Numbered from the stretch's first letter, positions 1 through 9,609 are shown. The stretch: 30,863 bases of DNA from Bdellovibrionales bacterium (GCA_043739185.1 JAYUEN010000471.1:1-30863), one strand, 5' to 3'. Translations and numbers: made by a program. Notes: generated by a model not told the origin, from the letters alone.

Positions 1-706
1 CGGCAGGGTAAAAAAAGCCGACCCAGTAATATGAAGCGATATGAAAGACGAATAGGAAGGCAAGGCCGCCCACTCGAAATCTAAAGTTTTTAAAGCTAAG
101 TAAAAGTGGGGCGGACAATTCGATTAAAATGACTGTTATTGCCTGCCACTGCATGAGTTCAATTTTATTGAAGGGAATTTTCCAGGAAAGACTTGCTCCA
201 GTGAGCCATTCATAATTGAGTTTCAAAGAGGCCGCGCCAACATAAAAACTGAGCATCCAGATATTGATCCAGAACTTTTTATTCGAAGAAAATAAAAACA
301 CCAAAGTTATAATATGGGGCATGAAATGATAGTTGCCCATAAAGCGGTAGTCCAGAGATTGAAATAGTAGCTTCATTACTTCGAGGCCAATAAGAAGAAA
401 CCATGTGGACTTTTTGAATATTGTTGATTGCAATAGGCCAAAAATACTTAAGATTGCATAGGTTGGCAAAAGTAAAGGAACGATGGGTAAAAGCAAAATT
501 TTGGCTGACTCGCAAGAAGAAAAAAACGGCCAACAATAACTTTGGTTCACATTTGTTAAAATTGATTCGAAGCCCTGGTAAAACCAAAATAGTGCAGTTA
601 AAAGATGAATTCCAATTAGAAAGTGGCTGTAGTTAGAAAGCAAACTGTCGGACTTTATTTCATCAATTTGCTTGTCGGCATATTTGTGAAGCTGCCAAAA
701 ATTCAT
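1..706 (-). CDS. HTTM / vitamin K-dependent gamma-carboxylase-like polytopic membrane protein (3' partial, absent from ORF track)
   Basis: Manual translation: ATG at 706 overlaps the TGA of the pentapeptide gene (ATGA) and the frame stays open for 235 codons to the edge. MNFWQLHKYADKQ...CWPFFSSC...DYRFMGNYHFM...FYVGAASLKLNYEWLTG...IELSAPLLL...FVFHIASYYWVGFFYP. These motifs parallel HTTM/GGCX motifs (NNHSYL, YFIAGVKKLDADWVEG, FHCMN). Confidence 0.8.
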   Translation of the reverse strand, partial: MNFWQLHKYADKQIDEIKSDSLLSNYSHFLIGIHLLTALFWFYQGFESILTNVNQSYCWPFFSSCESAKILLLPIVPLLLPTYAILSIFGLLQSTIFKKSTWFLLIGLEVMKLLFQSLDYRFMGNYHFMPHIITLVFLFSSNKKFWINIWMLSFYVGAASLKLNYEWLTGASLSWKIPFNKIELMQWQAITVILIELSAPLLLSFKNFRFRVGGLAFLFVFHIASYYWVGFFYPA

Positions 707-1239
707 TTAAACTCTAAGGGCATATTATTTTTGTCAGTGAAAGTGCATGCGTTGCATTTTGCATTTTTTAAATTGGCTTGGTCAAATTGAACCTTATTAA
801 AATGACAAAACTCAAAACGAACTCCACGTAAGTCGGCACGTGAAAAATCAACTTGGTCAAAATTGACAAAACTAAAATGACCTGCCTGAATTTGGCTATT
901 CAAGTACTTTACTTGCTTTTGATTTTGGTTGTAGAAAATAGCTGCTTTTAATTCAGCATTCGAAAAATCGACATTTTCAAAATCGGTATTCATGAATCTC
1001 GAAAATTGAAAGGTCGCATGCTGAAAATTGATGTTTTGAAATCTTTTATTTGAAAAAATAGAGTTGGTGATATGCGATCCGTGAAGGTCGGAGTCAAACA
1101 GTGTTTTTCCAAAAAATTTGCGTCCATCAATATGGCCGCAGGCGGCCATATTGAGAGCTGAATCTTGAGCCAATCTTGGTGGGCAATCGCCTTCTTTGCT
1201 AAGAGCCACCATCGCAACCATCAGCGCCATCGCAACCAT
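703..1239 (-). CDS. Pentapeptide repeat protein, possibly exported
   Basis: Runs of A(D/N)(L/F)xx pentapeptides (VDFSN AELKA AIFYN; VDFSR ADLRG VRFEF; ANLKN AKCNA). Start moved from 1290 to ATG 1239, which has GGAGGT 4 nt upstream and gives a hydrophobic N-terminus MVAMALMVAMVALS. Alternative start at 1149. Confidence 0.85.
   Translation of the reverse strand: MVAMALMVAMVALSKEGDCPPRLAQDSALNMAACGHIDGRKFFGKTLFDSDLHGSHITNSIFSNKRFQNINFQHATFQFSRFMNTDFENVDFSNAELKAAIFYNQNQKQVKYLNSQIQAGHFSFVNFDQVDFSRADLRGVRFEFCHFNKVQFDQANLKNAKCNACTFTDKNNMPLEFK
1127..1154. other. Perfect 13-bp inverted repeat (hairpin) inside the pentapeptide gene
   Basis: TCAATATGGCCGC-AG-GCGGCCATATTGA, about 45 nt downstream of the third pilin stop. 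No adjacent U-tract. Confidence 0.7.
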
Positions 1240-2152
1240 CCCCACCTCCATCGCCGGTATAACTTGAGCCGTCCGCACCACTCCCATCACGAGGGCCTGC
1301 GACCCATGGGATAAAGGTATTAAATCTTGTAAATCCGGGGCAGGTAATAATAGGTTTGCAAATTAAGGCACCATTGATGTCGATACGATCAATCGCAGTG
1401 TGAAGCGGACAAACGCCAACAAAAAGAAATCCGCATATTTTTTGATTTGCGCCATTGAGACCAATTACGACTTGAGCAGGTGGACAAAGTCCGACCAGGG
1501 GCAATATACAACTGCCATCACCAGCATTAAATGTGCCTCCAAAGGATGTGCAGTTTTGAGCTAGACCACCATCAATTTTAGACGGGAAGACAACAAAATT
1601 AAATTTATTAAGGTTTACTGAAGTGACTACTTTATTTACTGGCTTGAAGCTGAAGGTTCCGGTAAATCGATTTTGTGGATTCATGCAGCCGCCTACAGGC
1701 TGACAGATCGGTCGCCAAGTCACTGAATACTGAAATGAACAAGTGTCGCTGCCAGCGGCAGCGTCGAAGCCATTGCAAGTGCTGCCATCTTCTTGAAGAC
1801 CTAAAGCTGCTTGGCTTGGGTCCGTCAATATTTCGCCTGATTCATCAACCACTGAAATTGGCCAGTCATTATTTTTACGGCCTGCGCAGTCGGTATGGTT
1901 TTTAAGACAATCCATATTGGCGCTTGCAGCAATGGTTCGCGCCAAAGCATTGCCTGTACTAACTGAACTTATAATTTTACCGCGCACCTGAGATAAATTA
2001 AAACTGTGATTGAGAGAAGTTCTCATTGAAATGACGGATTGAAAACCATCAGATAAGATAATAAATCCAATGAGAATAATTAACGAAGCAACCATGGCTT
2101 CGACGATACCCACTCCATTTTGATTTCGAAGTCTTTTTAAAATTTCCAGCAT
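1199..2152 (-). CDS. Type IV minor pilin-like protein 3 (class III signal, Cys-rich, C-terminal Asp-Gly repeat tail)
   Basis: True start ATG 2152 with GGAGG 6 nt upstream. MLEILKRLRNQNG|VGIVEAMVASLIILIGF has G-1/E+5 followed by a hydrophobic helix. Paralogous to the two upstream genes. Tail RDGSGADGSSYTGDGGGDGCDGADGCDGGS. Confidence 0.85.
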   Translation of the reverse strand: MLEILKRLRNQNGVGIVEAMVASLIILIGFIILSDGFQSVISMRTSLNHSFNLSQVRGKIISSVSTGNALARTIAASANMDCLKNHTDCAGRKNNDWPISVVDESGEILTDPSQAALGLQEDGSTCNGFDAAAGSDTCSFQYSVTWRPICQPVGGCMNPQNRFTGTFSFKPVNKVVTSVNLNKFNFVVFPSKIDGGLAQNCTSFGGTFNAGDGSCILPLVGLCPPAQVVIGLNGANQKICGFLFVGVCPLHTAIDRIDINGALICKPIITCPGFTRFNTFIPWVAGPRDGSGADGSSYTGDGGGDGCDGADGCDGGS

Positions 2153-3000
2153 TCTAATCCTCCACCAGGATTTATTTTTACCGGAGCGAATCCAGAGCCA
2201 CAGCTTTTGTCTAAAAAGCCATTGTCTCGACAAACGCTTGTTCCATCCGGTTGAAAGCCTACAAAAACTTGGCCTAGGGGACAAGTCACATCAGAAACCT
2301 GGCAAGTATTTGTTACCGGGTCATAACTTCCGTGAGAAGCGCGACAACTCGCTGCCAATGTTCCAGCGGCACTTCCGCGTAAAAACTGTTTTTGAAAATG
2401 TTGAGCCAAATTAATTTTAAAAAAGTCGTCTCGACTTCCTGAAAGTAAGATTTGAATATTGATTTGAATTTTGGGGTCGATGGCCACTCCGTTTGTGACC
2501 GAAAGTAGTGTCGGAGGACACGCACCTGCGCATTGAGGTGTCCAGGTAATTGAAAAGGCAAAAGGGCAATTGTCGTTTTTAACGGCCGCAGAAAATCCTA
2601 CACAACTTGTTCCGTTGTAATCAAAACCTTTGCCGCTTGCAGGATTACCACTTGCCAAAACAGTAACGCCATCTTCGAGATAGACATCAAAAGGAGTTGT
2701 GCCTGCGGCGCAAACAGAGCCGTTCGTGGTTAAGCAATTCATGGCCGCGCCACCTTTAGTAATTATGGCTTTCCAGGCTTCATCGTTTTCAATGGTCCAG
2801 ATAACACTGTCTTCAAGAGTTTGAAGCATGGTCACGTCATCAAGTTTCTTTTTTGATGCAAAGCTCGACACAAATGAATTTGAAATGACGATCAAGCCCA
2901 TCGAAACTGAAAGCACAATGATCAGGGCCATCACCAAAGAGCTACCCTGTTTATTGCTTATTAGCCGAGCTCCAAATTTTTTTTTGATAATTTTTACCAT
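2137..3000 (-). CDS. Type IV minor pilin-like protein 2 (PilX/GspK-like, lacks Glu+5)
   Basis: Basic leader ...SNKQG|SSLVMALIIVLSVSMGLIVI with Met at +5. Shares the GFxxxGxxCxGF...NDxCPF...WxPxC core and the C-terminal CPxGQ repeat. Confidence 0.8.
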   Translation of the reverse strand: MVKIIKKKFGARLISNKQGSSLVMALIIVLSVSMGLIVISNSFVSSFASKKKLDDVTMLQTLEDSVIWTIENDEAWKAIITKGGAAMNCLTTNGSVCAAGTTPFDVYLEDGVTVLASGNPASGKGFDYNGTSCVGFSAAVKNDNCPFAFSITWTPQCAGACPPTLLSVTNGVAIDPKIQINIQILLSGSRDDFFKINLAQHFQKQFLRGSAAGTLAASCRASHGSYDPVTNTCQVSDVTCPLGQVFVGFQPDGTSVCRDNGFLDKSCGSGFAPVKINPGGGLECWKF

Positions 3001-3857
3001 ATGCTACCCGAGCTGGTTCCTACTGGATCCGTGCAGCCTGGTCCGCAATGGGCAATTCCCGTATTGTCTATACCCAATAATACCTGACCTCTGGGGCAAT
3101 CGACACCTTTGAGATGCTGGCAAATTTTATTATTATTATTGTCAAAGCCAACCAGATAATCACCTCGAGGACAAGGTCCACTATAAAAAGGCAAAGTGCA
3201 ACTTTGATCGGGGTTAAGAATGCCGCCCATTTTTGTGCACGTATCACTCAATGTAGCCGAAAAATTTGATTTAACATAAAAAATTTCAAACGAAGAAACG
3301 TTCATATTGCCAATTTGAGAAGTATCTTTAGGGGCAACATCTAATGTTACTTTAATTTGCACTACAGGATTCAAACAGCTTCCTGCGCTTGGGCAACCCG
3401 GTGCCCAGGTGGCAACGAATCTATAAGGGCAACTGTCATTACCACTAGCCAGATCAAAACCAGTGCAAGGTACGCCGTCTTTATTAAAGCCCTCGGAGCT
3501 TCCTGGCGTAGAAACTCGCGAAACTTGATTTCCTTGCGCATCGTAAATATTGAATGCTCCGCCTTGGCCGTGACAATCCGTTTTGTTGTTGAGACAGGCA
3601 AACACGCCAGCATTGGCTGGGGCACTGATTGAGTTTGTAAAAGCGGTATCGCTTTTTAAATTGTTCAAGAGCGTTGATCGAATATCGCTAATTTTAACAA
3701 ATGAGTTTGCGGACTTCGACATTTCTGACGAAATCTTCAAAACTGAAAACGCAGTCGTGAGTGCCATCGAGCCTAAAGCAACGTAAACTATGGCTTCAAC
3801 TAAACTGAAACCTAAAGCTGTGCTCAACTTATAAGACTTAGGGCCCCTAGTCTTCAT
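2994..3857 (-). CDS. Type IV minor pilin-like protein 1 (prepilin N-terminal cleavage/methylation motif)
   Basis: MKTRGPKSYKLSTALG|FSLVEAIVYVALGSMAL is a canonical G|FxxxE site. Cys-rich body. C-terminal CPRGDYLVGFD and CPRGQVLLGID repeats. Confidence 0.88.
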   Translation of the reverse strand: MKTRGPKSYKLSTALGFSLVEAIVYVALGSMALTTAFSVLKISSEMSKSANSFVKISDIRSTLLNNLKSDTAFTNSISAPANAGVFACLNNKTDCHGQGGAFNIYDAQGNQVSRVSTPGSSEGFNKDGVPCTGFDLASGNDSCPYRFVATWAPGCPSAGSCLNPVVQIKVTLDVAPKDTSQIGNMNVSSFEIFYVKSNFSATLSDTCTKMGGILNPDQSCTLPFYSGPCPRGDYLVGFDNNNNKICQHLKGVDCPRGQVLLGIDNTGIAHCGPGCTDPVGTSSGSIW

Positions 3858-4404
3858 TGACGTCTCCCGTTTGGTCCGAAAGACTTCGTAAAATGGATTT
3901 TTTCATATAGCGAAATCTTTCATTTGTATAGCCTGTATAGGCGGTAAGCTCCTTGGTTTTTTTGTTTTCGACTAAGACGGCGGGTAGCCGATTCATTTCT
4001 GATGGAGCTTTGATTTTACTTCGAACTACATGAAAGTGTTCAATCGCGGGCATAGCTTTTAATTTATCCTTTACGGCTAAGTTAATTTCTTCATCTAAAC
4101 AATACCCTAATATTTGAATTTTGCCATTCGCTTCGGGATTCTCTTTTAGTTCTTTTAAAGACAAATAGGCCTTCTCACAATATTCGCACCACGAGGCCCA
4201 AATAAAATGCACTACAATGGGGGCGTCCGTTTTTGGGGTTTGATCTGTGACCTGTGCAAAAGCTTCTTTTTTTACCTTGATATCATTTAAATATTCTTGC
4301 AACTTCTTATCAGATGTTGAGTTCGTAAAGCCTATTAGGCTCTGGGGCCCAATGAAGACAATCAGAATCAGCGTCAACAATGATTTAATCTTTTTACCTA
4401 TCAA
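3847..4404 (-). CDS. Exported TlpA/DsbE-like thiol-disulfide oxidoreductase
   Basis: N-terminal signal/TM segment, VVHFIWASWCEYC active site, and a RLPAVLV cis-Pro-like loop. Overlaps the pilin 1 start by 11 nt. Confidence 0.85.
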   Translation of the reverse strand: MIGKKIKSLLTLILIVFIGPQSLIGFTNSTSDKKLQEYLNDIKVKKEAFAQVTDQTPKTDAPIVVHFIWASWCEYCEKAYLSLKELKENPEANGKIQILGYCLDEEINLAVKDKLKAMPAIEHFHVVRSKIKAPSEMNRLPAVLVENKKTKELTAYTGYTNERFRYMKKSILRSLSDQTGDVNED

Positions 4405-4445
4405 AGCTTTTTCCTAAGTAAATAATTTAGTCACACCTTAGTATA

Positions 4446-4670
4446 CTATGATTCAATTTTGTTGCTAACCATTAATGTTATAGAATCGATACTTATAAAT
4501 TGTTTTTGGTCATATTCTATAGGCGAAATCTCAAAATTAAACGTTTCTTCAAGCCTGATAATGAGCTCAACAAGCGCCAAGCTATTTAATTGTTTATTGA
4601 TCGGTTCTGTTGAATCAATTGTTCCGCCTAAATCTTCGACAATTTTTGATACTTTGGCTTTTAAATTCAA
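4446..4670 (-). CDS. Acyl/aminoacyl carrier protein (DltC-like)
   Basis: 74 aa and acidic. LNSLALVELIIRLEETFNFEI matches the phosphopantetheine-Ser helix II motif (D/N-S-L...ELI..LEE.F). TTG start with GGAAG upstream. Confidence 0.85.
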   Translation of the reverse strand: MNLKAKVSKIVEDLGGTIDSTEPINKQLNSLALVELIIRLEETFNFEISPIEYDQKQFISIDSITLMVSNKIES

Positions 4671-4873
4671 ATGAGACTTCCATTTCTAGCTTTGATTTTC
4701 ATCTTTTCGCTAATCCAAAATGTATACCCTTCGATCCATTATAGGTTTGCAACTTATCATCAGTTAAAAAAATTACTTTTGCTAGTATTTCTGCGGATAA
4801 GTTAATTCATAAAAATGCTTAACAAGAGTTTCTGACATAGACTTTGTGATAGAAGTTTGGAACCCTGAGTACA

Positions 4874-6244
4874 ATGATATCCGCCGCGCATCAACTTTGT
4901 CAGAAACTAAGCCCTGAGTTTGTATATCAGGGCATTCACAAGCTTATAAATAGACTCATCAGGCTATTGAATCGAATTTTGTTAAATGAAAGCTATCTTC
5001 AGCTGCGCATCGGCGTCAGCGTTGGCTTGATTTCGACTCTCTATATATTATTTTTCAGATATGTTTCAAGGTCTCCTGAGCTCACAGGGCAAAGCGTAAG
5101 TTTTTTTGAGCTGCGCTATTTTTGGATTATTCCTAGTTTGGTGCCACTGGTTCTTATTACTGATTATATCGTTTTACTCTGCCGTGGAGCGGCCCAGATT
5201 TCAATTTTTGTCGCCTTTGGGCTGGCCTTTTACTTCATACCTGAAATGACTTCTTATGAGAGCTTCATTTATCATCCGCTCTTGATTCGCGTCTCAATGT
5301 TTTTTGTTTTGTCATCGCATATGTTTTTTCTCTTTGCGTGTCGAAGTCTTAAGGTTTCGACACGCCTTATGATTTTCTTCTTACTAGAAATGGGCCTCAT
5401 TATATTCTTTACCAAATTTGGGCAAGAACATTTTCTTGAAAGTTTTTGGGTCATTCAGCCGTATCGATATATCTTTATATTTTCTGTATTGTCTGCTGAG
5501 TCGAGTAATCATATTGGTTTTAAATTTTTGAATCTTCGTTTCTTTACCTATTTGTTGAGTCCAACCAATTTTATTACGCCCTTGCCGTTGCAATTTAAAC
5601 AGTGGCATTTTAGGGGTGAGAGACATCGCTTGAAAGCTAAGGCTATGTTCTATCTTCTTTTAGGACTAGTTGCACTTATGGGAACGGCGGTCATGCAGCT
5701 GTTAAAGCATAAGGTTTTTTATTTGCATCATGGTTCCTACCTTGCATGGTTTCTCGGCGGCGGGTTTAATTATTTATATTTCTTTTTGTTTAGTTATTCG
5801 AATATTACAATTCCGACTGCACTTTTTTGGTGGTTCGGAATTGAAGTGCCAGAGGCATACGATTTGCCGCTTCTTGCAACCAACCCACAGGATCGCTGGC
5901 GTCGTTGGAACTTTCATTTTTATGATTGGTATTTTAGGTTTATATTTTTTCCGATTTATAAATCGACGAGAAGCCAATTTTTAGGAGTGATGACGGTCTT
6001 TGGTGCAACTTTGTTTATTCATTTAGGCGGCTACAATCACGAATTGCTTGGAGCGGTTTTTACCAATAATTTGTCGCGTACTTATCTGAAAAAGATGGCA
6101 TTTTTTATGGGGCATGGATTATTGGTATATATTGGTATGCGATTCACGCGCTGGTTTCCTGCTGGCGATAAATTGAGTGGTTGGTTAAGCGTCATAGGGA
6201 TGTTTGTGATCATGAGCTTTTTACATTATATTTTAATGTTATGA
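4874..6244 (+). CDS. MBOAT family membrane-bound O-acyltransferase (DltB/AlgI-like)
   Basis: Polytopic. FSYSNI...GIEVPEAYDLPLLATNPQDRWRRWNFHFYDWYFRFIFFP matches the MBOAT PxNFxxP..A....FWxRW(H/N)...W....(I/V)xxP motif. Putative catalytic His in TLFIHLGG, and a downstream GHGL. Confidence 0.9.
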   Translation: MISAAHQLCQKLSPEFVYQGIHKLINRLIRLLNRILLNESYLQLRIGVSVGLISTLYILFFRYVSRSPELTGQSVSFFELRYFWIIPSLVPLVLITDYIVLLCRGAAQISIFVAFGLAFYFIPEMTSYESFIYHPLLIRVSMFFVLSSHMFFLFACRSLKVSTRLMIFFLLEMGLIIFFTKFGQEHFLESFWVIQPYRYIFIFSVLSAESSNHIGFKFLNLRFFTYLLSPTNFITPLPLQFKQWHFRGERHRLKAKAMFYLLLGLVALMGTAVMQLLKHKVFYLHHGSYLAWFLGGGFNYLYFFLFSYSNITIPTALFWWFGIEVPEAYDLPLLATNPQDRWRRWNFHFYDWYFRFIFFPIYKSTRSQFLGVMTVFGATLFIHLGGYNHELLGAVFTNNLSRTYLKKMAFFMGHGLLVYIGMRFTRWFPAGDKLSGWLSVIGMFVIMSFLHYILML

Positions 6245-7521
6245 AATTAAATCCATTTTTAAGTAAAAAAGAACTCGCTCTTGAAATATCGATAGTTCCT
6301 TTATTAATCTTTAAAATTGGCTTGATTTTATCAATTCTGATTCAAGTTTACGCCTACTTTCGCGATTCGAGTTTAATATACGGTAACCAAAGCCTTTTCC
6401 CTCCTCAAATCGCCGATCTATATTTAACTTCGGGTGTCTTGGCGCTATCTCAAAATGTGGGGCCGCAGATTCTCATTGTAATATTTGGCTTGGCAATTTT
6501 AACGCTATTTAAGAGGCCTCAGCGATTTTCCTTTGGCTTGCTTGCACTTTTAGAGATTCTTTTAAATCAGCGAAATTTTATTTTCAGCAATCGTGGTGAT
6601 TACTCTTTGGTTTATTTCTGTCTGATGGCTGCGCTTGTGCCAACTGTTACTTTTAACAATCGTAAGCAAAAAATTCGAATCGCAGAAATGTTTCCTCTCT
6701 TTTTGCTTCACTCAATCATTTATTTTTTAAATTTTGTATTTAAGATTTCGAGTGCTTGGGGTAGGGGAGACGGCCTCAAGTTCACACTCAATCATGTTGA
6801 GTTATTAAGGTGGCCGGTGAAGCTTGATTCTTCTCAAATGCTATTTTTAAACTATTCGGCGATTTTGACAATAATGTTCGCAGGATTTTCAGCTTTCATT
6901 TCCGTTCGTTTGTCTCGTACAAGAACCTTTATGAGTGTGCTAACGATTGGTTATCATTTAGTAGCGAATCTATTGATGCGTCTGAGCTGGCTTTCAATGC
7001 CATTTTTATTTTTAGAGATTGCTATGTTTTGCTTTCGTTCGACCGAAATAAAACCAGGTAAGGGGACTCCAGGTATTTTTCATTGGACACAAAAAATCGC
7101 AATTGCTCTCTTGCTGATAGGTTTTTTTGGAATTAAGGATGTCGGAGACTTGAGTGTTTTTGACGGACGACAAAATATTTTTTTGGGGCACAATTGGTAT
7201 ATGTTTTCGCCGCCGCCGCCAATGTCGGGCGAATGGCGGGCTTTGATTAAGTCGTGGGATAAAAATCGTCCCATTTATATGGCTGAGCTCAGGCAAAAGT
7301 TAGGGTTCTTTTTATTTCAACATGAATACAAGTATTTTTTTAATTTACGGAGAACTGAACTGCTTCCTGTGGTAGGGCGCTTGGGTCAGAAACTATGTGA
7401 GATTTATAAAGTCGAAAATCCAAAGGAGATTCAATTGATTTATTCGGGACGATTGTTTGAGAAAAGCGAAAGTTTCGAGATGAAATACCAAGCTGTGGAT
7501 TGTACTGCACGTAGTTTATAG
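6241..7521 (+). CDS. HTTM-domain (SdpB-like) membrane protein with a C-terminal soluble domain
   Basis: Start ATG 6241 overlaps the MBOAT TGA (ATGA). Motifs LNQRNFIFSNRGD, IYFLNFVFKISSAWGRGDGL, YHLVANLLMRLSWLS and HNWYMFSPPP. Confidence 0.78.
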   Translation: MKLNPFLSKKELALEISIVPLLIFKIGLILSILIQVYAYFRDSSLIYGNQSLFPPQIADLYLTSGVLALSQNVGPQILIVIFGLAILTLFKRPQRFSFGLLALLEILLNQRNFIFSNRGDYSLVYFCLMAALVPTVTFNNRKQKIRIAEMFPLFLLHSIIYFLNFVFKISSAWGRGDGLKFTLNHVELLRWPVKLDSSQMLFLNYSAILTIMFAGFSAFISVRLSRTRTFMSVLTIGYHLVANLLMRLSWLSMPFLFLEIAMFCFRSTEIKPGKGTPGIFHWTQKIAIALLLIGFFGIKDVGDLSVFDGRQNIFLGHNWYMFSPPPPMSGEWRALIKSWDKNRPIYMAELRQKLGFFLFQHEYKYFFNLRRTELLPVVGRLGQKLCEIYKVENPKEIQLIYSGRLFEKSESFEMKYQAVDCTARSL

Positions 7522-7642
7522 CTTTCTAGATTGAGTGAGAAGCAGTTGGACTCGATTTTGACCCTTAGCTAAATAGACTTGCATTATAAAGTATTGTTGG
7601 GCCAATATCTTAGTAGTGTAAACGATCTTTTGGGAGAGCAAA

Positions 7643-8077
7643 ATGAAAGCACTTAAAAAGAAAATGTGGTCCCGTAATTTTAAAAGAAAGTTAATTGTAA
7701 ATTCAAATATTCAGCTCGTCCTGCTCAGGTATGCAGTAACGATGGGGATATTATTTCTTTCGCTGGGAATGTTTATTGCTTTTTCGTTTGAAAAAATGCT
7801 GCTCATTAATATGACTGGATTTGACTCATTCGGGAGAAATGACAAGATTGTTTTTTCATTATTGATATTATTAATTATCGTAGTTTGTTATTTGAGTATG
7901 GTTATATCCAATCGCATAGTGGGACCCATTTATAGACTTGTTCGACATATGGAAAACGCTAAGAATACTGGCCAGTATAATGAAATTCACTTTCGTGAAA
8001 ACGACTACTTTAAGGAACTCGCCATTTCATACAATCAAATGTTGACGCGTTTTCGTGAAAACGACACCAAGAAATAG
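7643..8077 (+). CDS. Small 2-TM plus HAMP-like protein with no output domain
   Basis: KRKLIVNSNIQ leader, two TM helices, then SNRIVGPIYRL...FRENDYFKELAISYNQM. GGGAGAG RBS. Confidence 0.8.
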   Translation: MKALKKKMWSRNFKRKLIVNSNIQLVLLRYAVTMGILFLSLGMFIAFSFEKMLLINMTGFDSFGRNDKIVFSLLILLIIVVCYLSMVISNRIVGPIYRLVRHMENAKNTGQYNEIHFRENDYFKELAISYNQMLTRFRENDTKK

Positions 8078-8091
8078 GTCTACCTCTCGCT

Positions 8092-9609
8092 TTATGGCTG
8101 CTCCTGAAAGTGGTGAAGAATAGAGCTCAATGGGCTTCCGTGAGCCGAAGCATTTGCGGCCGCCTCACGCCAACTTATAGGAATTGGATCCGATATGTCC
8201 CATACTTGGGTGCTGAAAGCAGGGTCAGCAAAAGTAACTGCCTGTGCGTCGGCAGCAAAAGTCCAAATGAAATCGGGGTGGCTATTCGAGTACCATTCAC
8301 CCTGACCTATGATATTCATATTATCGTCGAGTTCGAGATCGTAGATGAGGCGAAGCGTTTTGCTTGGAGCATTGGGCATGGCTTTGCGGGTTGGAATCAC
8401 CTCTACTAAATAAGTGATATCAAGCGAGACTCCTATGATGAAGTGAGCATCGGGCGAACGGTGATCTGAGAATTTGTCGATCGTAAAATCTTTAAGTGGG
8501 ATTGCAGTGAAGCGCAAGCTTGAACCTTCCTGCCAAGTCTGCGGATTGAAATAATGATAGCGATAGGAGACGACAGGATAATTCCAAATCTCAGCATCAT
8601 GACCAAGATCCATGACAAAACTTCGGTGATGCACGCCGAGCTGATTGATGAGGGCCACGTGCCAGGTGCTCGGATTTACTCCTCTGCAAGCGTCGTCAAT
8701 TATTCTACCCACAGAGTCGCGCGGCAGTTTCGCGATTTCACAGCGATCACCCACAAAACGTGTTTTGGGTGGTGAATTTGCCCATAACATCGATTGCAAA
8801 GCCTTGACGTCTTGAGGGTAAAAATTCACCGACAATCCGCTCGGTGACTTGAAGGTAAGCGACCCCGTAGGGATTGCAACCTTCATCGAGGCAGCTGCTG
8901 CCCATCCGTGACAGATCCCTGCCCATGACGGGACTCCGTTTGCGCCCTTTATATATTTACTACCCTGACTCCATGAGTATTTTGTGAGACTGAAGTTAGT
9001 ATCGCCCACCAAAATGTCATATTTTTCAGCTGGCGAGAGAACATCGATTGCCTCAGCGTTACCCTCAGCGACAATAGCCTCAGGTGGATTGTCATTATAA
9101 TAAGCTAAATTGGTTTCCCAATTTTTTGTACTTATCACTTTTGGATCGGCGTAACGAAATCCTATAAGTCCTTTACGGAAAGGCCAGTAGGAGTCCGCCC
9201 AAACGCCATCTGCTGCGCCACCGACGGCAAGATTTTGCAATTGCATCTCGCGCAAACTATACACGAGAGTGCCAGGGTCCACGAGTACCTCCGGGGCATC
9301 AACTCTTTTTGTATTTGTTGCATTTGGAGCCGGAGAACTTGCGACATTCATAATTAGCAATCGATATTCATTGCGAAGTCGAACATCAGCCACTGATTCG
9401 TCGGGCCGTATATATCCCCGCGAATGCGTCTGACCATTTTCATCAACAAAGTCTGGGCGCCGTTCTGCCATTAATGCCGGATTATTTTGAAATGCCTGCA
9501 GATATTCTTGCAGACTATCAAAGGCAAAAAGCGGTTTTGAGTAAGACGCTATAATTATAGACATTATAAGTATAGACACGAAACCAAAAGCTAATTTGTC
9601 GTTTTTCAT
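8092..9609 (-). CDS. Secreted transglutaminase, GP42/TGase-elicitor family
   Basis: Signal peptide. WADSYWP, LSPAEKYD, catalytic-type WAGICHGWAAAA (adjacent Cys-His), Pep-13-like IWNYPVVSY, and GEW...HPDFIW. Confidence 0.85.
   Translation of the reverse strand: MKNDKLAFGFVSILIMSIIIASYSKPLFAFDSLQEYLQAFQNNPALMAERRPDFVDENGQTHSRGYIRPDESVADVRLRNEYRLLIMNVASSPAPNATNTKRVDAPEVLVDPGTLVYSLREMQLQNLAVGGAADGVWADSYWPFRKGLIGFRYADPKVISTKNWETNLAYYNDNPPEAIVAEGNAEAIDVLSPAEKYDILVGDTNFSLTKYSWSQGSKYIKGANGVPSWAGICHGWAAAASMKVAIPTGSLTFKSPSGLSVNFYPQDVKALQSMLWANSPPKTRFVGDRCEIAKLPRDSVGRIIDDACRGVNPSTWHVALINQLGVHHRSFVMDLGHDAEIWNYPVVSYRYHYFNPQTWQEGSSLRFTAIPLKDFTIDKFSDHRSPDAHFIIGVSLDITYLVEVIPTRKAMPNAPSKTLRLIYDLELDDNMNIIGQGEWYSNSHPDFIWTFAADAQAVTFADPAFSTQVWDISDPIPISWREAAANASAHGSPLSSILHHFQEQP

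Follow-up and report, generated by a model that had tools for sequence, protein, structure and literature searches.

Which of the proteins encoded at this locus is modified, and by which of its enzymes? The window, a stretch of 30,863 nucleotides of Bdellovibrionales DNA, begins with a cluster in which a carrier protein (ACP), an MBOAT, two HTTM-family proteins (HTTM-L and HTTM-R) and a thioredoxin-like protein surround three minor type IV pilins. The original prediction was that of a pilin-modification system centred on acyl transfer by ACP and MBOAT. What emerges looks like an extracytoplasmic protein-tailoring locus with a pilin as a likely substrate; that part of the prediction is supported, and acylation by ACP and MBOAT as its core is not. 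The conserved core is HTTM-L, a PQQ-type beta-propeller and a pentapeptide-repeat protein, not the MBOAT, and the linkage to pilins goes via HTTM-L and an Asp–Gly tail.

Organization of the locus

Positions 1–7700 are contiguous within one contig in two public runs from which this DNA may derive, and all nine predicted open reading frames were found at the place and on the strand assigned to them. Two arms diverge from a 203-bp intergenic region (4671–4873) between the ACP and MBOAT genes. On the minus-strand arm the measured overlaps are 11 nt between pil1 and the thioredoxin gene, 7 between pil2 and pil1, 16 between pil3 and pil2 and 4 between HTTM-L and the pentapeptide gene, and a gap of 41 nt separates the thioredoxin and ACP genes; on the plus-strand arm MBOAT and HTTM-R are coupled through a 4-nt overlap, ATGA. 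The divergent region, the gap and the ATGA coupling had all been predicted. The further claim that every other junction overlaps holds for the junctions measured, and for pentapeptide gene and pil3 it hinges on an uncertain start. As to domains, Pfam recovered the expected pentapeptide, thioredoxin and PP-binding matches but not MBOAT, N_methyl or HTTM (PF05090), for which neither HTTM-L nor HTTM-R in the window exceeds the cut-off. The MBOAT and HTTM identities, which have no Pfam or NCBIfam match to those families, are supported by structure.

A class III signal motif is visible in all three pilins, which are encoded on the minus strand: pil1 (2994–3857; G/FSLVE), the PilX-like pil2 (2137–3000), paralogous by sequence to the other two and devoid of Glu5, and the Cys-rich pil3 (1199–2152), whose signal NG/VGIVE is class III-like. 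Against the Pfam N_methyl profile pil1 and pil3 fall below the cut-off (14.5 bits for pil3) and pil2 has no match; pilin orthologues from two other loci, L096 and L097, pass it. Only pil3, the proposed substrate, carries an Asp–Gly tail, formed by its last 30 codons (1199–1291, minus strand) and ending in GDGGGDGCDGADGCDGGS; pil1 and pil2 (43–48% orthologues in L040–L042) have none. The Asp and Gly columns of the tail are invariant across nine pil3 orthologues at 28–45% identity, and among 18 pilin-profile matches in genome G000, two of them open-ended, this tail is the only one of its kind. In L096 and L097 the pilin at the pil1 position bears the tail. Both the tail and the beta-propeller gene were missing from the original prediction.

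A GGCX-like membrane protein and its partners

The HTTM-L gene (2–706, minus strand) is truncated by the window end after the first 235 amino acids and continues in frame on contig C500 of G000, through an exact 98-nt end overlap, to give ∼388 residues. HTTM-L is present in 150 of the 384 searched genomes of the order (∼40%). The structure model, made for a full-length orthologue from L040 that is 48–50% identical to the window protein, predicts a GGCX-like HTTM transmembrane fold. Its best 15 Foldseek matches are all GGCX (best E 1.9e-6; next family 0.12), and structural alignment with GGCX gives a Z of 12.2 over 228 aligned residues (rmsd 4.2 Å), compared with 8.7 for the best unrelated chain. 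The match spans about residues 47–329 of GGCX and leaves the propeptide-binding region unmatched; the C-terminal part has only a low-TM match to a VKGC lumenal cluster. PF05090 is detected at E≤0.01 in 4 of 63 HTTM-L sequences.

When a profile of these 63 sequences is compared with PDB families, GGCX comes first (E 0.009), and its catalytic K218 is aligned together with W223, D263 and H287; by alignment the window equivalents are K162, W167, E196 and H222. These positions are kept in 60, 63, 59 (as Glu) and 54 of the 63 rows, respectively. A GNYH motif (Asn 60/63, His 58/63) and a GxF motif are conserved, matched by motif only to N159/H160 and F299 of GGCX. Lys217 of GGCX is replaced by Leu in 48 of 63 rows, Lys being outside the four commonest residues, and the Tyr395 position, again by motif match only, is apparently Arg in 49. 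Passages of a recent report describe the same Lys217 to Leu replacement in a Leptospira homologue that lacks substrate activation (10.1101/2025.02.09.637231).

The PQQ-type beta-propeller gene follows HTTM-L on C500. Such a gene adjoins HTTM-L or is fused to it in 54 of 60 loci, 8 of which have the fusion, and its product is membrane-anchored, with invariant Arg, His and Lys residues. Homologues of the pentapeptide-repeat protein (703–1239, minus strand; PF00805, 65 bits) occur in 33 of the 60 loci. Its start is uncertain (1149–1290): the ATG at 1239 sits after GGAGG, and the hydrophobic leader that it yields is read in another frame of the pil3 tail. The product of the gene originally labelled TlpA (3847–4404, minus strand; WCEYC; PF00085, 23.8 bits against a cut-off of 23.5) is supported as a secreted CxxC thioredoxin-like protein, and nothing beyond that; it probably acts in disulfide formation in the Cys-rich pilins. 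Homologues adjoin the pilin triplet in L079, L096, L097 and L161 and lie a few kb away in L101, and both thioredoxin and rhodanese genes are found among the neighbours of HTTM loci. A search for cofactor genes identified MenB and VKOR above cut-off in G000.

Asp–Gly tails across the order

According to a rule set after the test loci had been seen, C-terminal tails occur in 24 of 60 sampled HTTM-L loci versus none of 20 control regions (Fisher p 4e-4, kin not being independent), and all 27 tails lie within 4.2 kb of HTTM-L. The same rule selects 5 ORFs in the 4.85 Mb of G000. The carriers are unrelated, comprising minor pilins, Ig-repeat adhesins, MAT prey-recognition fibres and lipoproteins, and in a tree of HTTM-Ls the tail-linked members are scattered, with 12 changes. 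In one MAT subfamily a CDGDGDG end is found in 18 of 18 full-length members versus 0 of 22 distant matches; its gene lies between two HTTM-L genes, and it occurs in the cultured and genetically tractable B. bacteriovorus. The 626-residue member of that species has the same length as Bd2872 (PMC10769870), with which it is equated from its size and the order of its neighbouring genes, not by sequence comparison; the MAT fibre passages and supplements searched mention no tail or modification.

At least two GDGGDG-coding matches are present in 34 of 150 genomes with HTTM-L versus 14 of 234 without it, and a reversed control pattern is no different between the groups (30/150 and 38/234). Several observations count against modification of the tail by HTTM-L: the rule finds no C-terminal tail in 36 of the 60 loci, many of the GDGGDG matches across whole genomes fall in internal Gly-rich repeats in both groups, and G405, a 93% complete genome with no HTTM-L match, encodes an 847-residue protein with a clear tail. 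In the part of a published Tn-seq dataset that concerns the propeller and the second HTTM-L, with genes mapped by gene order, values are low in the full screen (0.29 and 0.22) and not low in the validation pool (10.4 and 1.7) (PMC6561027). Taken as a whole, the tail is probably tied in function to the HTTM-L core.

The ACP–MBOAT–HTTM-R arm

The carrier protein (4446–4670, minus strand; LNSL, Ser kept) scores 20.9 bits with PF00550 against a cut-off of 20.8 and is 36–41% identical to the ACPs of L040–L042. The MBOAT (4874–6244, plus strand) has a DltB-like architecture: the best 25 Foldseek matches listed for its model (pLDDT 83.6) are all MBOATs, headed by DltB, and the matches include the protein-acylating PORCN and HHAT. 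His383 (10/10) and Asn346 are invariant, and one of ten members has a Pfam MBOAT match. The FxYxxF shuttle, a PatA/AlgI-type extension, is found in 0 of 10 C-termini; a Tyr near the end in 6 of 10 lies inside the last helix. HTTM-R (6241–7521, plus strand), present in 8 of 384 genomes, matches HTTM/LMF1 clusters of the ESM Atlas (feature score 0.95, TM 0.76–0.78), equally near to LMF1 and HTTM, and is related to HTTM-L by hhalign (E 7e-5, probability 63). In alignment it keeps the Lys/Trp/His pattern, with Gly-Asp replacing the Gly-Asn-Tyr-His of HTTM-L, and its C-terminal part is DUF5819-like (HNWYMF.PPP).

The place of the 203-bp intergenic region, in which 3 promoter-like matches do not differ significantly from the 1.1 ± 1.0 expected, is filled in L040–L042 by an acyl-CoA-ligase-type enzyme and a cupin, both absent at the window locus. 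A 34–37% identical ligase stands beside its own ACP on contig C72 of G000.

There is nearly an even chance that the arm delivers its acyl group to a lipid or glycan of the envelope and that the pilin cassette is merely adjacent. DltB is the best fold match; among the more distant members, the MBOAT of L046 lies near GT2, YdjC and PMT-type glycosyltransferase genes and that of L038 near a sulfatase-domain membrane protein; L151 and L152 have second MBOAT-like genes with Tyr-motif ends (by eye); and the same ligase and cupin families on C72 and C385 serve MBOATs that, by eye, have FxYxxF-like ends and SGNH-like partners. On the other hand, the window MBOAT has no shuttle motif, HTTM-R is tightly coupled to it in 4 of 4 close loci and, as originally noted, SGNH proteins and glycosyltransferases are missing, here from a scan of 18 proteins of the window and 6 of C500.

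Acylation of the pilins themselves by an ACP–(ligase–cupin)–MBOAT arm, with HTTM-R as a periplasmic partner replacing DltD, is unlikely, though compatible with the tailoring reading. As predicted, these pilins accompany the closest MBOAT clade in all 4 of its loci. The window MBOAT is coupled to HTTM-R and lacks both the FxYxxF shuttle and the SGNH partner that MBOATs acylating polymers have (PMC12148441), and the matches to PORCN and HHAT fit a protein substrate. Yet the whole arm occurs in 4 of 384 genomes, and these four loci are one clade and therefore one event. The predicted linkage fails further out, where all 13 more distant MBOAT loci (5 of them on contigs under 10 kb) are without this pilin family and HTTM-R, although two, L046 and L148, lie near other pilin triplets. 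The ligase and cupin have been lost at the window locus, and five pilin cassettes (L079, L096, L097, L101 and L161) reside in genomes with no match to the MBOAT subfamily at E≤1e-18, which argues against acylation as the core.

A proposed mechanism

From the folds, conserved residues, gene linkage, tail enrichment and the MenB and VKOR genes observed, we infer binding, substrate, chemistry and function as follows. On balance, the cassette is best explained as tailoring surface proteins, HTTM-L modifying the Asp–Gly tail, most likely by carboxylation. Covalent modification of the tail by HTTM-L is fairly probable; that it consists of menaquinone-dependent carboxylation is a tentative proposal, made by analogy with GGCX and with MloH as precedent. 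Exported pil3 would display a flexible C-terminal tail on the periplasmic face, where the propeller, with its invariant basic residues, may hold the acidic tail while HTTM-L modifies the aspartates outside the cytoplasm. The Lys218 equivalent would deprotonate menaquinol, from which O2 would generate a strongly basic species; the carbon adjacent to the carboxylate of Asp would lose a proton and then take up CO2. The product would be malonate-type, Gla-like Ca2+-binding residues at the tip of the pilus or fibre. The tail may be a portable tag for pilins, Ig-repeat adhesins, MAT fibres and lipoproteins, and the thioredoxin would act either on the disulfides of the pilins or in the recycling of quinone. 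A single gain in one clade would have added ACP, MBOAT and HTTM-R as an accessory arm, by which an acyl group activated by the ligase passes through the membrane to some acceptor. Against this mechanism stand the Leu at Lys217, the apparent Arg at Tyr395, the unmatched propeptide-binding region and the different site at which MloH acts.

It is rather improbable that HTTM-L changes the tail through a different base chemistry (epimerisation, cross-linking or the formation of aspartimide/isoAsp), closer to that of the linaridin and Sdp HTTM proteins. Asp–Gly is the classic aspartimide-prone dipeptide, and 133 such pairs dominate the 31 tails. The linkage data serve this reading as well as carboxylation, and HTTM-L departs from GGCX at Lys217 and probably at Tyr395. 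The maturation of linaridins involves HTTM proteins, through a mechanism that a passage of PMC9927463 describes as unclear. Conversely, the residues of GGCX for quinol deprotonation and acid binding are kept (K218, W223, D263 and, by motif, N159, H160 and F299), and no alpha/beta-hydrolase occurs among the neighbours scanned. Just as improbable is a reading in which the propeller binds the tail non-covalently, for recognition or anchoring, and the HTTMs help Cys-rich surface proteins as redox or folding factors linked to quinones (LMF1/DoxX/MauE-like). A Cys pair invariant in 63 of 63 HTTM-L rows, the thioredoxin and rhodanese neighbours, HTTM-L feature matches to MauE/DoxX clusters and the proximity of HTTM-R to LMF1 favour it, but HTTM-L retains both the Asn-x-His motif and the Lys218 set, its whole-length structural match is an HTTM+VKGC-lumenal cluster (TM 0.78) and most tails need no Cys.

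Implications

The repeated occurrence of HTTM-L beside Asp–Gly-tailed surface proteins in Bdellovibrio-type predators suggests an undescribed decoration of prey-contact proteins. The one characterised bacterial GGCX homologue found, MloH, acts on a small-molecule intermediate in the passages describing it; this locus family offers bacterial GGCX homologues a candidate substrate that is a protein and is marked by a simple tag in its sequence. If correct, the carboxylation reading would mean that proteins undergo vitamin K-dependent carboxylation in bacteria as well, and on aspartate, and would represent a new type of pilin and adhesin modification that bears on prey recognition by predators. 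A wider and more doubtful conjecture is that Bdellovibrionales perform vitamin K2-dependent carboxylation, the first on bacterial ribosomal proteins, in which a portable Asp–Gly tag becomes carboxy-aspartate, Gla-like Ca2+-bridging tips bind anionic prey surfaces and interchangeable transferases (the MBOAT acyl arm, sulfatase-type, SpeE-like) decorate further.

Comparison with known systems

The Dlt (DltA/B/C/D/X) and PatAB/AlgIJ systems share with this locus family an adenylation enzyme (the ligase of L040–L042), a carrier and a DltB-like MBOAT. The ligase, however, is acyl-CoA-synthetase-like and accompanied by a cupin, the MBOAT is coupled to an HTTM protein, and there is no FxYxxF shuttle, no SGNH protein among the proteins scanned and no DltX-like microprotein in the window, L001 or L040–L042. 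SdpB and the linaridin HTTM proteins share the HTTM domain with the locus proteins, whereas the candidate substrates here are large surface proteins; the scanned set, 18 proteins from the window and 6 from C500, includes neither a short precursor peptide nor a LinE-type alpha/beta-hydrolase. HTTM+DUF5819 proteins, for which passages of a bioRxiv 2026 report propose from models a vitamin K-carboxylase-like role and name no substrate, resemble HTTM-R with its Gly-Asp motif and DUF5819-like C-terminal part.

Passages of two papers describe MloH, from malonomycin biosynthesis in Streptomyces paromomycinus, as an orthologue of GGCX in bacteria with an aspartyl residue as its carboxylation target (PMC12647623, PMC12186529), and part of a third describes it as an HTTM fused to a DUF5819-like region (10.64898/2026.08.19.745780). 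Its likeness to HTTM-L is drawn from these descriptions. It differs in that its target is an NRPS/PKS intermediate, where the alpha carbon of the tethered Asp is modified and not an internal side chain, and in having no ribosomal protein substrate, propeller or pilins. The closest parallel in fold is GGCX itself: HTTM-L shares its transmembrane fold and the equivalents of K218, W223, D263 (as Glu) and H287, together with N159/H160 and F299 by motif. Its candidate substrates, like the substrates of GGCX, are exported and have clustered acidic residues, and the genome carries menaquinone and VKOR genes. HTTM-L differs in its length of 388 residues, in the unmatched propeptide-binding region, in having Leu for K217 and in its partnership or fusion with a beta-propeller, and its candidate substrate is a C-terminal Asp–Gly tail in which Asp makes up 16.8% of residues and Glu is nearly absent (0.9%).

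Composition of the locus and identity of its proteins

The nine open reading frames of the locus have the strands and junctions described in the original prediction: HTTM-L, a GGCX-like HTTM protein cut by the window edge, is accompanied on the reverse strand by genes for a pentapeptide protein, the minor pilins pil3, pil2 and pil1, a thioredoxin and an ACP, and MBOAT and a second HTTM protein, HTTM-R (6241–7521), lie on the forward strand. In profile searches the pentapeptide protein obtained a strong Pfam match, the thioredoxin and the ACP barely reached their cut-offs, and N_methyl stayed below cut-off in the pilins. MBOAT and both HTTM proteins went unmatched by their families' own models in Pfam and NCBIfam, and PDB sequence searches with the MBOAT query and with six-row HTTM alignments gave no useful match. 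Their identities are settled by structure comparison, which supports them where Pfam and NCBIfam do not. The predicted MBOAT model, obtained from a 10-row alignment in which His383 and Asn346 are invariant, has a pLDDT of 83.6, and the top 25 Foldseek rows listed are all MBOATs, with DltB best, followed by HHAT and PORCN. HTTM-R scores 0.95 by features against HTTM and LMF1 clusters and reaches a TM of 0.76–0.78 by model; its C-terminal part weakly matches DUF5819.

The reading frame of HTTM-L resumes, via an exact 98-nt overlap, on C500, another contig of the same genome (G000; 4.85 Mb, 97.65% complete). The leftward extension suggested earlier yielded, beyond HTTM-L, first a PQQ-type beta-propeller and then genes for a rhodanese, for two proteins with a CxCxxHHxY motif, for a SAM decarboxylase and for an 892-aa membrane protein with a SpeE domain, the stretch L001:8333–14675 of C500 continuing the cassette with the decarboxylase, SpeE-domain, CxCxxHHxY and rhodanese proteins. 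The SAM decarboxylase/SpeE group could constitute an aminopropyl-transfer arm. SpeE-like genes also adjoin distant MBOATs in L044 and L146. The two CxCxxHHxY proteins are secreted, and their orthologues weakly resemble Lsa20/LIC11469, below cut-off.

On the other side, a small HAMP-like membrane protein (7643–8077, forward strand) comes next after HTTM-R; by eye, look-alikes are present after a pilin cluster on C94 and, on C180, at a distance of some kilobases from the HTTM-L locus. Directly downstream of the locus, 8092–9609 on the reverse strand encodes a secreted member of the transglutaminase-elicitor family (PF16683, 108.8 bits). Towards the contig end, 27164–30861 (forward strand) holds a TPR protein and then a protein of at least 722 aa, with a weak PD40 match, that runs off the contig. 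A promoter scan gave matches not above chance expectation, and no RNA data set was listed as containing the stretch.

A conserved core of HTTM-L, propeller and pentapeptide protein

HTTM-L was found in 150 of 384 searched genomes of the order Bdellovibrionales and belongs to a large family (787 clusters at 50% identity with E≤1e-10). Sixty of 210 matches were fetched with about 9 kb per side, chosen for family spread and long contigs before any tail was known. In 54 of these loci HTTM-L either adjoins a propeller gene or is fused to it (fused in eight), and a pentapeptide gene occurs in 33, an approximate count since the search profile contained one out-of-frame row; by the thresholds used, this pilin family occurs in nine and MBOAT in none. 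Two further HTTM-L copies in G000 each adjoin a propeller. The conserved core consists of HTTM-L, propeller and pentapeptide protein, not MBOAT. The observation behind the original prediction stands; its interpretation, that ACP, MBOAT and HTTM proteins acylate or otherwise modify three minor pilins, survives in part, with the emphasis moved from MBOAT to HTTM-L and an Asp-Gly tail.

The ten members of a divergent HTTM-L clade (L112, L118–L122, L125, L126, L132, L133) differ in their active-site residues, go with a more distant propeller and lack tails in their vicinity; they probably have another substrate or reaction.

The MBOAT arm

At E≤1e-18, 12 of the 384 genomes gave a match to the MBOAT subfamily of the window; HTTM-R was found in eight. 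The whole cassette, comprising propeller, HTTM-L, pentapeptide protein, three pilins, ACP, MBOAT and HTTM-R, is kept at about 40% identity in L040–L042, where an acyl-CoA-ligase-type enzyme and a cupin, both missing from the window, sit between ACP and MBOAT. A ligase on contig C72 of G000, 34–37% identical to this type and accompanied by a cupin and its own ACP, could serve the MBOAT arm of the window in trans. Misassembly was rejected as the cause of the missing ligase: a single contig covers 1–7700 in two runs, possibly the source of this DNA. In a quick tree the HTTM-L proteins of the window and L040–L042 group together as a single clade (SH-aLRT 100), and the MBOAT–pilin linkage of these four loci therefore counts as one event.

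Thirteen distant MBOAT loci, each counted once, were compared (L038, L039, L043, L044, L045, L046, L145–L149, L151, L152). An ACP lies near MBOAT in ten and other pilin triplets in two; HTTM-R and this pilin family were seen in none, five of the thirteen being on contigs shorter than 10 kb. Five loci (L079, L096, L097, L101, L161) combine the pilin triplet with pentapeptide protein, HTTM-L and propeller in genomes (83–99% complete) that gave no match to this MBOAT subfamily. The MBOAT arm is an add-on to the cassette.

Sulfatase-domain membrane proteins of 900–1160 aa (L079:4277–7771, L097:2756–5506, L101:2330–5332, L038:12985–15906) are possibly phosphoester transferases forming an alternative tailoring arm; in L079, L097 and L101 they adjoin the pilin cassette in place of the MBOAT arm. 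An alternative arrangement in L092, L102, L103 and L148 comprises a PilX-like gene with two pilins, a secreted protein (which in L092 and L102 has an Asp-Gly block in its interior), an HTTM–propeller fusion, a rhodanese, a cupin and an ACP-like gene. L148 has pilins, rhodanese, MBOAT, ACP and ligase, and HTTM-L is absent.

As acceptor of the MBOAT arm, a lipid or a glycan is a candidate that falls just short of being probable. In polymer-acylating MBOATs an FXYXXF motif serves as acyl shuttle and an SGNH protein as partner (PMC12148441), whereas FXYXXF is found in none of ten C-termini of the present subfamily. A search around the arm found no DltX-like microprotein, and the earlier remark that no SGNH partner is visible holds for the 24 proteins scanned in the window and C500. 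A pilin, the acceptor originally favoured, is rather doubtful: it shares the cassette with MBOAT in a single clade. Elsewhere in G000, on C72 (1–7400) and C385 (L007), ligase, cupin and ACP genes adjoin MBOATs that have, by eye, FxYxxF-like ends and SGNH-like partners; these sets are the classical counterpart, within the same genome, of the arm in the window.

Asp-Gly tails beside HTTM-L

The C-terminus of pil3 is GDGGGDGCDGADGCDGGS; two Asp and three Gly columns of the tail are invariant across nine orthologues of 28–45% identity. A tail was scored where the last 30 residues hold at least two DG and eight G, or where GGDGG or DGDGDG lies inside the last 12, a rule fixed after the test loci and before the control regions were looked at. 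By this rule 24 of the 60 HTTM-L loci have a tail (one, L122, through a probably spurious 63-codon ORF), against none of 20 control regions taken from these genomes, 18 with a positive locus (Fisher p 4e-4, kin not being independent). The count excludes an edge-truncated tail in L078 as well as internal blocks in L092, L102 and L113. With about 9 kb read per side, none of the 27 tails is farther than 4.2 kb from an HTTM-L gene. Asp is abundant in the tails (16.8%) and Glu almost lacking (0.9%). On a tree of 63 HTTM-L rows the tail-linked members are scattered, with 12 changes, of which the starred branches force only two.

Tails occur on proteins with no relation to one another, namely minor pilins, Big_1 adhesins of 1359–2381 aa, lipoprotein-like proteins, short secreted proteins and a MAT fibre. 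Only one of 18 pilin-profile matches in G000 has a tail, and a general trait of these pilins was rejected as the explanation. Read in another frame, the DNA of the tail in the window and in L040 gives a hydrophobic leader for the pentapeptide protein; a mere by-product of this leader was likewise rejected, as tails elsewhere lie on the opposite strand or far from pentapeptide genes, those of L077, L085, L087, L089, L093, L094 and the MAT fibres having no such overlap.

Five ORFs in the whole of G000 satisfy the rule, two of them at HTTM-L loci. Tailed proteins of this genome include a 77-aa secreted peptide (L156:2171–2404, C39), a 163-aa secreted protein (L157:8635–9126, C465) and a 288-aa lipoprotein-like protein adjoining a second propeller/HTTM-L pair (L003:13978–14844); these three are possible substrates in trans.

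Of the 150 genomes that have HTTM-L, 34 contain at least two matches coding for GDGGDG, as do 14 of the 234 that lack it, compared with 30 and 38 for a reversed control pattern; as a noisy proxy for tails, this genome-wide pattern lends weak support. Among 19 regions around such matches, many are internal Gly-rich repeats in both genome groups, and four in HTTM-L genomes are tails or blocks, three on proteins with signal-like N-termini. One genome with no HTTM-L match (G405, 93% complete) carries a clear long Asp-Gly tail on an 847-aa protein (L195:264–2807), either a counter-example or an assembly gap.

Tailed MAT fibres in Bdellovibrio

The tailed fibre belongs to the MAT prey-recognition proteins (NF053851, 161.8 bits against a cut-off of 60). 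In all 18 full-length homologues CDGDGDG stands at the C-terminus, with a few residues after it; the same is true of none of 22 distant matches. A B. bacteriovorus member, P0165, has 626 aa, the same length as Bd2872 (PMC10769870), the two being matched by length and gene order, not sequence. Locus L082 reads pentapeptide protein, HTTM-L, propeller, two small genes, MAT and HTTM-L, which we infer to correspond to the published run EP01_RS10270–10305. Within this run RS10280 is annotated as a Ser/Thr kinase, and the propeller weakly matches a Ser/Thr kinase-type family.

In a Tn-seq study (PMC6561027), the full screen on planktonic V. cholerae gave fitness values of 0.22–0.53 for seven of the eight genes and 1.23 for one, with values above 1 among those seen for other prey conditions. 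Its validation pool reproduced low fitness for Bd2871 (0.0001) and Bd2872 (0.021), but not for Bd2869 (10.4) or Bd2874 (1.7). Because the former pair held up and the latter did not, the MAT fibre, and not demonstrably the enzyme, appears to matter for predation.

Likeness to GGCX and a putative mechanism

The full-length HTTM-L of L040, 48–50% identical to the window protein, was modelled. In Foldseek, GGCX fills the top 15 rows (best E 1.9e-6, TM only 0.37–0.45), and superposition on GGCX gives Z 12.2 and rmsd 4.2 Å over 228 residues, the best unrelated chain reaching Z 8.7. The 63-row HTTM-L profile finds GGCX as best PDB family (E 0.009) with K218, W223, D263 and H287 aligned. Their equivalents in the window protein, K162, W167, E196 and H222, are retained in 60, 63, 59 and 54 of the 63 rows. 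In the GNYH motif N is kept in 60 rows and H in 58; this and a GxF motif, matched by motif only, probably correspond to GGCX N159/H160 and F299. These residues form the quinol base and acid pocket of GGCX (PMC12647623, 10.1101/2025.02.09.637231). G000 encodes MenB and VKOR above cut-off; a search of it for MqnA, a marker of the futalosine route, gave no match. HTTM-L may, by inference, work like GGCX.

In the proposed mechanism an exported carrier protein would display its tail in the periplasm, where the propeller, whose Arg66, His98, Lys102, His144 and His230 are invariant, would grip it. HTTM-L would carboxylate the tail aspartates with menaquinol, O2 and CO2, the glycines on either side giving the shorter side chain access to the pocket, and the product might bind Ca2+ in a Gla-like manner at the pilus or fibre tip. 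The evidence in hand consists of folds, residues, linkage, tail enrichment and cofactor genes. That HTTM-L modifies the tail covalently is on balance probable; carboxylation as the kind of modification is a more tentative proposal. HTTM-L departs from the GGCX family in staying below the Pfam cut-off and in having Leu for Lys217; Tyr395 appears to be replaced by Arg. Alteration of the tail by another base chemistry is unlikely. Equally improbable is a tail acting as a non-covalent tag beside an HTTM-L that is a redox or folding enzyme, the complex prediction for HTTM-L, propeller and tail (score 0.00) being counted neither for nor against binding.

Comparison with known systems

A literature search, largely without subscription papers, returned no description of an HTTM-L/propeller/tail module, of tails of the Asp-Gly kind in Bdellovibrio or of ribosomal proteins carboxylated by a vitamin K-dependent enzyme in bacteria. 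For HTTM+DUF5819 pairs, a 2026 bioRxiv preprint suggests that they act like a carboxylase and names no substrate. The nearest precedent for tail carboxylation by HTTM-L is MloH, a bacterial GGCX orthologue reported to carboxylate an aspartyl residue (PMC12647623, PMC12186529, 10.64898/2026.08.19.745780). MloH works on an NRPS/PKS intermediate, at the alpha carbon, whereas the candidate substrate here is a protein tail. A known enzyme family is here combined with an undescribed set of partners and a candidate substrate tag.
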